This document shows, one piece after another, positions 50,817-51,663 of a stretch of 64,000 bases of DNA (position 1 is its first letter; every line of letters begins with the position of its first letter). The position numbers and the translations under genes were made by a program. Origin of the DNA: Pseudomonas phage phi9_PA9; sequence record PQ093904.1. The stretch is one strand, 5' to 3'. The notes under the pieces were generated by a model. That model saw only the letters and a program-made list of their open reading frames with translations. It had not been told where the DNA came from and did not search any database.

Positions 50817-51080
50817 ATGCATAAACTTAATCCTGGTTGTTATCCATTAACTATAAATCCTAATGGTAAGTTTCTGAATAAAGACGATTTACGGAATCTT
50901 CCCAATGGGATTTATGTAACTTCTCCGTTACATGGTCCTAGGGTATATAGCCATGATCGACGCGTTATGGTTGATGGTGATTATTGTTATCTAATCACTG
51001 CACCGAACATAAAATTCAAGGTAAGTGATTTCTTTAAATATAATGTAGTTTATTATCCGAGCATTTACCTCAAGAGGTAA
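50817..51080 (+). CDS. small protein, 'NLPxGxY.T.P.HGP...DR(R/K)' family member A
   Basis: Paralogous to 51436..51663; lies directly upstream of the HTH gene. Confidence 0.45.
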   Translation: MHKLNPGCYPLTINPNGKFLNKDDLRNLPNGIYVTSPLHGPRVYSHDRRVMVDGDYCYLITAPNIKFKVSDFFKYNVVYYPSIYLKR

Positions 51081-51087
51081 TAAATAA

Positions 51088-51372
51088 ATGGCAAACGAAT
51101 GCACTCCCGGTGTCTGGGATACACTAGTTGACTCGACAAAAGAAACTGAAAACCTACGTATCCGTTCCCAACTCATGCGGGCTCTCACCCGTACTATAAA
51201 GGGCTGGGATCTTCCGCAAAAAGACGCTGCTGCTCGCCTACATGTTACGCAACCGAGATTGAATGATCTTCTCAAAGGCAAGATTGACAAGTTCTCTCTG
51301 GACGCCCTGGTAAACCTACTGGACGCGGCTGATCTGACTCTTGAGATATCAGTGATCCCACGTGCAGTATAA
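51088..51372 (+). CDS. XRE-family HTH protein resembling HigA/type-II antitoxin-like transcriptional regulators (host-like composition)
   Basis: ENLRIRSQLMRALTRTIKGWDLPQKDAAARLHVTQPRLNDLLKGKIDKFSLDALVNLL is an HTH_XRE antitoxin-type helix-turn-helix; GC visibly higher than flanks. Confidence 0.6.
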   Translation: MANECTPGVWDTLVDSTKETENLRIRSQLMRALTRTIKGWDLPQKDAAARLHVTQPRLNDLLKGKIDKFSLDALVNLLDAADLTLEISVIPRAV

Positions 51373-51435
51373 ACCATGGGGACGCAGCTTGATACGGCCA
51401 CCGGGTGGTTTCATGACAGCAAGGAAATAAAGAAA

Positions 51436-51663
51436 ATGACAACTGATAAAAAGTTTAGCATTAAAGAACTCGGATGGGAAAAAGCCACTAATCTACCCGA
51501 TGGTGAATACTACACTATTCCTAAACATGGACCACAAAACTGGCGGTATGATCGCAAGATTATCAAAACCAAGAACAGTGTAAAACTGGTAAATGAACCA
51601 GATTATAGCTGGTCAGCCCCATTCTTTTTCGAGGCAAATAACTTGTTAATCGAAGAACCATGA
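51436..51663 (+). CDS. small protein, family member A'
   Basis: ATNLPDGEYYTIPKHGPQNWRYDRKII aligns with RNLPNGIYVTSPLHGPRVYSHDRRVMV; start moved to ATG 51436 (AAGGAAATAAAG RBS). Confidence 0.45.
   Translation: MTTDKKFSIKELGWEKATNLPDGEYYTIPKHGPQNWRYDRKIIKTKNSVKLVNEPDYSWSAPFFFEANNLLIEEP

Follow-up and report, generated by a model that had tools for sequence, protein, structure and literature searches.

The gene PHIKZ114 of Pseudomonas phage phi9_PA9 (sequence record PQ093904.1) encodes a small helix-turn-helix (HTH) protein, gp114, which corresponds to the antitoxin of a Pseudomonas aeruginosa type II toxin–antitoxin (TA) pair and was acquired by the phage lineage without the toxin. The stretch analysed is 64,000 nucleotides (nt) long and is referred to below as the window. 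We consider the host origin and the orphan status of gp114 to be highly probable. For the function of the protein in the phage we propose, from sequence comparisons and at a probability of about 0.5, that gp114 acts as an orphan antitoxin which neutralises a host mRNA-cleaving toxin in the cytoplasm and so prevents abortive infection. Gene names are taken from Pseudomonas phage phiKZ, since window positions 49000-53500 match positions 110709-115209 of the phiKZ genome (NC_004629) with 99.5% identity.

Family and bacterial relatives of gp114

A profile search assigns gp114 to the Pfam family HTH_37 (PF13744; E=4.6e-28, 97.3 bits against a gathering cut-off of 27), with the match covering profile positions 3-79 of 80. 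An earlier reading of this DNA, made from the letters alone (the sequence-only reading), had called the gene an XRE-type HTH antitoxin, and the profile search bears this out. The PHROG match of gp114 is phrog_2339, and databases label PHIKZ114 as an 'HTH DNA binding protein' or an HTH/XRE regulator. The AlphaFold model (predicted local distance difference test score, pLDDT, of 80) has an XRE fold, the nearest structures being the HTH_37 entries 2a6c and 2o38.

Among 5.8 billion proteins searched, the relatives of gp114 outside phages were overwhelmingly Pseudomonas proteins of 94-95 amino acids (aa) with 65-86% identity, and the identity to the P. aeruginosa antitoxin is 85-86% at the amino acid level. 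Genomic context was taken for seven gp114 homologs; 13 distinct loci had upstream sequence, and a fourteenth, on a 700-bp contig, had none. The 13 loci lie on two kinds of P. aeruginosa chromosomal island, in P. nicosulfuronedens and on small Rep3 plasmids from metagenomes. In every one of them the gp114 homolog (68-86% aa identity) is found some 106 nt downstream of a gene for a 108-109-aa protein that matches Pfam PF05973 (Gp49) with E-values of 2e-23 to 2.5e-26 and that NCBI names 'type II toxin-antitoxin system RelE/ParE family toxin'. Toxins of PF05973 are listed in a survey as ribosome-dependent mRNA endonucleases encoded by the first gene of the pair (PMC11980606). Because its close bacterial homologs follow a Gp49 toxin gene, gp114 can be classed with the antitoxins of Gp49/HTH_37 type II pairs. 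The sequence-only reading had named 'gp49-like' proteins among the possible cognate toxins, a guess that proved apt for the candidate host P. aeruginosa, in which a PF05973 protein is encoded upstream of the antitoxin.

Solved TA complexes cover distant relatives of this exact subfamily only. The host toxin profile matches the HigB chain of the Streptococcus pneumoniae HigBA complex (PDB 6AF3) with E=7e-5 and Mycobacterium tuberculosis HigB1 weakly, and the antitoxin profile matches HigA of 6AF3 weakly as well (E=0.4). The exact sequences of the host antitoxin and toxin are each found on at least 1000 contigs carrying P. aeruginosa names, including chromosomes of up to 7.2 Mb. Since the P. aeruginosa representative genome of GTDB has no match to the pair, we regard it as strain-variable accessory DNA. 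The host toxin alleles are 79% identical to each other. All 13 loci with upstream sequence (L003-L013, L017 and L018) share a palindrome, TTATATC-N6-GATATA(A/G), which lies 163-171 nt upstream of the toxin ATG in otherwise diverged surroundings and is likely to be the operator of this TA family.

Capture of the antitoxin cistron

The relationship to the bacterial locus extends to the nucleotide level. Window positions 51070-51421 align with the P. aeruginosa chromosome CP113974.1 (L017:5416-5768) with 311 of 353 columns identical (88%), and with two metagenomic copies (L018 and L019) at 87-88% identity. On the left, homology starts 18 nt before the gp114 ATG and takes in the Shine-Dalgarno sequence AAGAGG (51072-51077); it spans the whole open reading frame (ORF), continues for 49 nt beyond the stop codon and breaks off 14 nt short of the gp115 ATG, immediately ahead of the ribosome-binding site of that gene. 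No remnant of the toxin gene, of the TA promoter or of the 106-nt spacer was found in the phage locus. The last four codons of gp113 (ctc aag agg taa, LKR-stop) lie inside the host-derived DNA. Since the left junction falls within these codons, the C-terminus and stop codon of gp113 are of host derivation, and this C-terminal end is 4-6 residues longer than that of its relatives.

The direction of transfer can be read from base composition. PHIKZ114 has a GC content of 0.491 (0.453 at third codon positions, GC3), compared with 0.341 (GC3 0.273) for PHIKZ113, 0.382 (GC3 0.368) for PHIKZ115 and a window mean of 0.376; with z=2.75 it ranks among the top 0.8% of all 285-nt windows. The captured segment as a whole has a GC content of 0.49-0.51, and that of 51373-51435 is 0.51. 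Of the 40 differences from the host that change composition, 34 replace a host G/C with a phage A/T (binomial p=8e-6), and the phage copy, at 49% GC, is intermediate between the host gene (56%) and the phage genome (37%). The bias and the intermediate GC therefore argue for transfer from host to phage followed by partial amelioration. The sequence-only reading had claimed a GC content above that of the neighbours and a capture from a bacterial TA locus; both claims stand, the first on a composition profile that is not uniform and the second on the alignment to a P. aeruginosa Gp49/HTH_37 antitoxin cistron and the context of the 13 loci. The 'E. coli-like' codon choice that it had also described has to be given up, and an origin of that kind with it, the donor being Pseudomonas and gp114 a partly AT-ameliorated copy of a host gene.

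No relative of a RelE-, HigB- or Gp49-type toxin was detected next to gp114 or, by tblastn, elsewhere in the 280 kb of phiKZ, and no Pseudomonas phage encodes one either, which upholds and widens the earlier remark that none is adjacent. Since a toxin is encoded neither in the neighbourhood nor elsewhere in phiKZ, gp114 is a derived orphan outside any complete TA system. The lytic, unrelated Pseudomonas phages pf16, HRDY3 and Lu11 similarly carry HTH_37 genes without a Gp49 neighbour; in Mycobacterium prophages, in contrast, the gp114 homolog adjoins a RelE-like toxin. An ancestor of the genus Phikzvirus would have taken over the antitoxin cistron alone, leaving the toxin behind, and the copy would have come to lie between two tandem paralogs native to the phage. 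The event is an unusually recent and clean host-to-phage capture: it comes from the phage's own host species, it can be aligned at the DNA level, its junctions are precise and its AT-amelioration is measurable.

Retention and proposed function of gp114

All 43 Phikzvirus genomes have an intact PHIKZ114 at this position, including those of the OMKO1 group, whose block is 91.6% identical in nucleotides, and no Phikzvirus with an 'empty site' lacking the insert was found among the 43. Within the chimalliviruses gp114 is restricted to this genus; EL-like phages and PhiPA3 have one gene of the gp113/gp115 family, without an HTH_37 neighbour. Sequences identical or nearly identical to gp114 have also been deposited as Klebsiella pneumoniae, Agrobacterium sp. 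and P. aeruginosa, on very short or phage-sized (~282 kb) contigs; these are probably phage carry-over or contamination in assemblies.

Comparison of gp114 from phiKZ and OMKO1 gives a synonymous divergence (dS) of 0.21 and a nonsynonymous divergence (dN) of 0.034, that is, a dN/dS of 0.16, which falls to 0.06 over residues 22-94. Purifying selection acts on the gene in the phage. Size-exclusion chromatography coupled to mass spectrometry of phiKZ-infected PAO1 detected both the gp114 and the gp115 proteins (PMC10449902 source data). In a phage transposon screen on PAO1, PHIKZ114 had 13 and 22 insertion sites in two data sets, and PHIKZ113 and PHIKZ115 tolerated insertions as well (PMC12676376); all three genes are dispensable in PAO1. 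The tolerance of insertions in gp114 fits a conditional accessory gene, and it argues against an antitoxin that guards an adjacent phage toxin. It could also be expected of a neutral passenger of accidental host-DNA recombination that is now functionless, and the confinement of gp114 to one genus and the more than 200 dispensable genes of phiKZ point the same way. We nevertheless consider such a passenger quite improbable, given that the ORF has stayed intact in lineages that have diverged by 8% in nucleotides, that it shows the above constraint at an appreciable dS, that its ribosome-binding site is retained and that the protein is made in infected cells.

Our preferred explanation, neutralisation of a host toxin, would work as follows. 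The TA pair is carried on mobile islands by many P. aeruginosa strains. phiKZ destroys the host chromosome early in infection; with the host genome gone and gene expression taken over by the phage, the labile host antitoxin would no longer be replenished. Gp49 toxin freed in this way would cut mRNAs on ribosomes in the cytoplasm, those of the phage among them, since the phage nucleus shields DNA and not translation: phiKZ DNA is enclosed in a protein shell, and phiKZ mRNAs are reachable by the RNA-targeting Cas13a, which is effective against this phage. Phage-made gp114 in the cytoplasm would then use its N-terminal strand and its alpha1-alpha2 helices to bind the toxin and hold it inactive, and abortive infection would not ensue. 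We infer every step from the triggering of the TA pair by phiKZ onward. Such a role would agree with where the gene came from, with its retention under purifying selection, with its expression and with its dispensability on PAO1. The residues that are invariant in the bacterial antitoxins, V9, W10, L13, E19, N22, L23, R24, R26 and L29, are all retained in gp114. In S. pneumoniae HigBA (6AF3), the nearest complex with a solved structure, HigA contacts HigB via beta1 (residues 6-9), alpha1 (10-17) and alpha2 (20-42), W10 included (PMC7984235), and the putative toxin interface of gp114 can be mapped by this analogy. Our literature search yielded no paper in which PHIKZ114 or gp114 is treated as an antitoxin, and none characterising the TA subfamily.

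Several observations weigh against toxin neutralisation as the retained function. The host TA pair is not covered by a PADLOC model and gave weak matches only, and the subfamily is without a characterised member. In the transposon screen, PHIKZ114 accounts for ~90,100 reads, compared with 585-5,494 for its neighbours PHIKZ111-115.3 (PMC12676376, supplements 2 and 3), and each of the first 100 genes in these tables has at most ~20,000 reads (PMC12676376). The excess might stem from a jackpot clone, or disruption of gp114 might improve fitness on PAO1, in which case the gene is costly. Furthermore, the changes that gp114 has undergone are concentrated at its N-terminus. Of the 14 aa differences between phiKZ gp114 and the closest host protein, nine fall in residues 1-21 (binomial p=9e-4), whereas this segment contains only 12% of the differences among bacterial homologs (Fisher p=1e-5 for the comparison with gp114). 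Positions 17 and 20 are both T in either phage lineage and P and A, respectively, in 24 of 24 bacterial homologs (P17T, A20T). phiKZ gp114 is additionally altered at R5, T7 and E18, and it is again mainly in residues 1-21 that the phage lineages differ from each other. If this segment is the main toxin-binding element, its remodelling could reflect relaxed selection on neutralisation.

Relaxed neutralisation combined with a preserved HTH would favour a different function, namely that gp114 has been kept for DNA binding, as a transcriptional regulator acting either on its ancestral operator on host TA islands or on a new phage or host site. This would account for very strong purifying selection on the HTH and C-terminal part alongside a remodelled N-terminus, and the recognition-helix residues T54, Q55, P56, R57 and L58 are the same as in the bacterial proteins, so that gp114 could still recognise the palindrome of the bacterial loci. 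However, the strongly conserved residues 22-42 correspond to the main toxin-binding helix of the 6AF3 analog, so that their conservation is no specific sign of DNA binding. The whole phiKZ genome contains no copy of the palindrome with one mismatch or fewer, the four copies with two mismatches are at chance level, and the captured segment itself came without the palindrome. Moreover, the protein nucleus around phiKZ DNA is selective, and transcription of this DNA relies on phage RNA polymerases and non-sigma70 promoters. On the host side, the chromosome is lost early in the infection, and repression of the host TA operon would release the toxin, not silence it. We thus regard retention for DNA binding as unlikely.

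Remodelling of residues 1-21 may, on the other hand, be adaptive, providing resistance to proteases that degrade the antitoxin or a broader specificity across toxin alleles. Extending the proposal of toxin neutralisation in this direction, one can imagine that the Gp49/HTH_37 pair is a natural P. aeruginosa defence against nucleus-forming jumbo phages, acting on phage mRNA in the cytoplasm, and that phiKZ stole the antitoxin and remodelled its toxin-binding or degradation-prone N-terminus (P17T, A20T and the cluster at 5-20) into a stable or broad-spectrum 'super-antitoxin'. This extended scenario is tentative and, to our minds, more doubtful than the neutralisation that it builds on. If it is true, no type II proteic orphan antitoxin would have been shown to serve as a counter-defence in a chimallivirus before gp114, and an ongoing arms race would be readable at the nucleotide level.

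Relation to known antitoxin systems and phage antidotes

Gp49 (PF05973)/XRE-HTH type II pairs such as S. pneumoniae HigBA (6AF3) and M. tuberculosis HigB1 have the toxin-then-antitoxin order (family tabulated in PMC11980606). With the antitoxin of the P. aeruginosa Gp49/HTH_37 pair gp114 shares the HTH_37 domain, the length, an identical recognition helix and the invariant W10, L13, N22-R26 and L29. It differs from complete Gp49/HTH_37 systems in that the phage copy is without a toxin partner, a TA promoter and an operator, and in its remodelled N-terminal 21 residues.

Orphan antitoxins and antitoxin mimics are an established category of phage counter-defence, of which gp114 is a well-supported candidate member: it is a homolog of a host antitoxin without a toxin, and its cognate toxin is found in the natural host species. 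T4 Dmd counters RnlA/LsoA. Orphan antitoxin-like enzymes of T4-like phages counter DarTG1 (PMC11825919), and TifA counters ToxIN (PMC10853763). The concept is the same for Dmd, TifA and the DarTG1 antagonists: a lytic phage brings its own antidote to an infection-aborting host toxin. Most such proteins, though, either are not recognisable homologs of the cognate antitoxin or are aimed at type III or IV systems, whereas gp114 was copied recently from a type II proteic antitoxin of the host species.

The window holds two host-antitoxin-like genes, PHIKZ114 and PHIKZ104 (~45808-46296). The latter encodes AdfM (phiKZ gp104), a DarG2-like macrodomain orphan antitoxin that was experimentally shown to protect phiKZ from DarTG2 (PMC13309987), a precedent within phiKZ itself for the role proposed for gp114. 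AdfM and gp114 are encoded in the same phage and gene block, and both are homologs of host antitoxins without a toxin. AdfM can be dispensed with except in hosts that have the cognate TA defence; on PAO1, gp114 is dispensable too. The two differ in mode of action: AdfM, which the phage nucleus imports, reverses DNA ADP-ribosylation enzymatically, whereas gp114 would bind a cytoplasmic RNase stoichiometrically. They differ also in distribution and in the kind of evidence available, since AdfM is present in about half of chimalliviruses and validated by experiment, while gp114 occurs in Phikzvirus only and is a candidate.

phiKZ is a model nucleus-forming phage and a phage-therapy candidate, and its nucleus explains its resistance to DNA-targeting defences. 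Cytoplasmic threats to it are poorly known, and the target of gp114 would be an RNA-level defence against a nucleus-forming phage. The retention of a host-derived antitoxin by every Phikzvirus marks a specific P. aeruginosa TA pair, which is widespread, as a candidate for RNA-level defence and for determining host range. Transposon mutants of gp114 exist, and the donor locus is known to the base, with the toxin gene at 808879-809205 and the antitoxin gene at 809312-809596 of CP113974.1.

Flanking paralogs and layout of the locus

PHIKZ113, PHIKZ114 and PHIKZ115 lie within a block of small same-strand genes of unknown function, 5 kb downstream of PHIKZ104 (Table 1). The hairpin between PHIKZ112 and PHIKZ113 looks like the upstream edge of the transcription context of gp113 and is a candidate terminator. 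For PHIKZ115, the ATG at 51436 is more likely to be the true start than position 51376, because KEN51 and OMKO1 are annotated in this way, the PHROG profile begins there and the Shine-Dalgarno sequence AAGGAAA precedes it.

Table 1. Features of the gp113-gp115 locus (window coordinates)
Feature	Coordinates	Strand	Description	Basis or remark
Terminator-like hairpin	50777..50800	.	Perfect 10-bp stem, AAACCACCC-TATA-GGGTGGTTT, in the PHIKZ112/PHIKZ113 interval; candidate	Terminator-like scan
PHIKZ113	50817..51080	+	87 aa, native small protein of Pseudomonas chimalliviruses, paralog of gp115	phrog_10237
Host-derived cassette	51070..51421	+	352 nt: 18 nt with Shine-Dalgarno sequence, gp114 ORF, 49 nt of 3' flank	88% nt identity to CP113974.1
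PHIKZ114	51088..51372	+	94 aa, XRE-type HTH_37 antitoxin homolog; no toxin partner in the phage	Pfam PF13744
3' flank of antitoxin cistron	51373..51421	+	Host-derived; right end 14 nt before gp115 ATG	Nucleotide alignment
PHIKZ115	51436..51663	+	75-aa form, native chimallivirus small protein, paralog of gp113	phiKZ annotation: from 51376, 95 aa

The two genes on either side of the captured cistron resemble each other (BLASTP E=2e-11, 32% identity over 59 aa), both match phrog_10237 with E<=1e-35, and they have in common the motif LP(N/D)G.Y.T.P.HGP...DR(R/K), which is present in the homologs from other phages too. The sequence-only reading was therefore right to describe the flanking genes as paralogs with a shared motif. 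Judging by their sequences, gp113 and gp115 are old paralogs: the nearest relative of gp113 is EL gp085 (54%), and that of gp115 is PhiPA3 gp116 (37%). The family comprises Pseudomonas chimallivirus proteins and a few dozen unannotated metagenomic ones; in libraries of 5.8 billion and 1.8 billion proteins we found five close clusters and 41 representatives, all small and unannotated. The sole domain association seen for the family is in a metagenomic protein of 193 aa (P0259), where a gp113/gp115-like domain is fused to the C-terminus of Pyr_excise, a T4 endonuclease V-type pyrimidine-dimer glycosylase domain (PF03013, E=1.6e-11); this fusion is uninformative as to function. Within PHIKZ113, a stretch of 74-80 nt (50853-50932) is 84-85% identical in nucleotides to EL-like phages (Elvirus), even though the two genera have otherwise almost no DNA identity in common here. 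The similarity could come from a recent exchange between co-infecting jumbo phages or from very strong constraint.

The same earlier reading had suggested that the flanking paralogs are toxin-like or partners of the HTH protein, which would make gp113, gp114 and gp115 one functional module. The three genes are indeed tightly packed on the same strand, with the gp113 stop codon 7 nt ahead of the gp114 start, as in the toxin-then-antitoxin order, and 75-87 aa is a typical toxin size. Yet neither gp113 nor gp115 resembles the Gp49 toxin or matches any Pfam, NCBIfam or PADLOC family, and members of their family occur singly and without an HTH gene in EL, PhiPA3, D6 and Psa21. The tight spacing comes from the insertion event, the left junction being inside the end of gp113, and insertions are tolerated in all three genes. 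A three-gene module is thus very improbable, and we conclude that the 'sandwich' is merely the landing place of the cassette between native tandem genes. As candidates for the missing toxin, gp113 and gp115 were rejected for the same occurrence of the family without an HTH gene and for the lack of any sequence, profile or fold similarity to RelE, HigB or Gp49.

Further features of the locus concern composition and signals. An antisense ORF of 136 aa (50991-51401, minus strand) covers all of gp114 and is in all likelihood a side effect of the GC-rich insert, not a gene. The hairpin after PHIKZ112 (CCACCC-TATA-GGGTGG, then TTT) resembles the element CCACCGGGTGGTTT at 51402-51413, in the host-derived 3' flank of gp114, the host counterpart of which is TCACCGAGTGGTTG; by its sequence, the phage element may represent convergence on the terminator-like signal of the phage. 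The early-promoter word TATATTAC occurs in the window at chance-level frequency. Stretches in which the GC content over 285 nt is 0.47 or more are also found at 2103-2468, 4133-4543, 37942-38457, 49530-50158, 52817-53113, 56590-58742 and 62279-62819; the one at 49530-50158, which covers PHIKZ110 and the start of PHIKZ111, adjoins the gp113-gp115 locus (GC content of the phage genome, 37.7%). Finally, the same block contains a second pair of small paralogs, PHIKZ109.1 (49252-49503) and PHIKZ112 (50497-50772), which share the motif REYGINP..RG.WV.R..G.FID and cross-match phrog_23667 and phrog_26012, with PhiPA3 gp120 annotated as similar to gp112.

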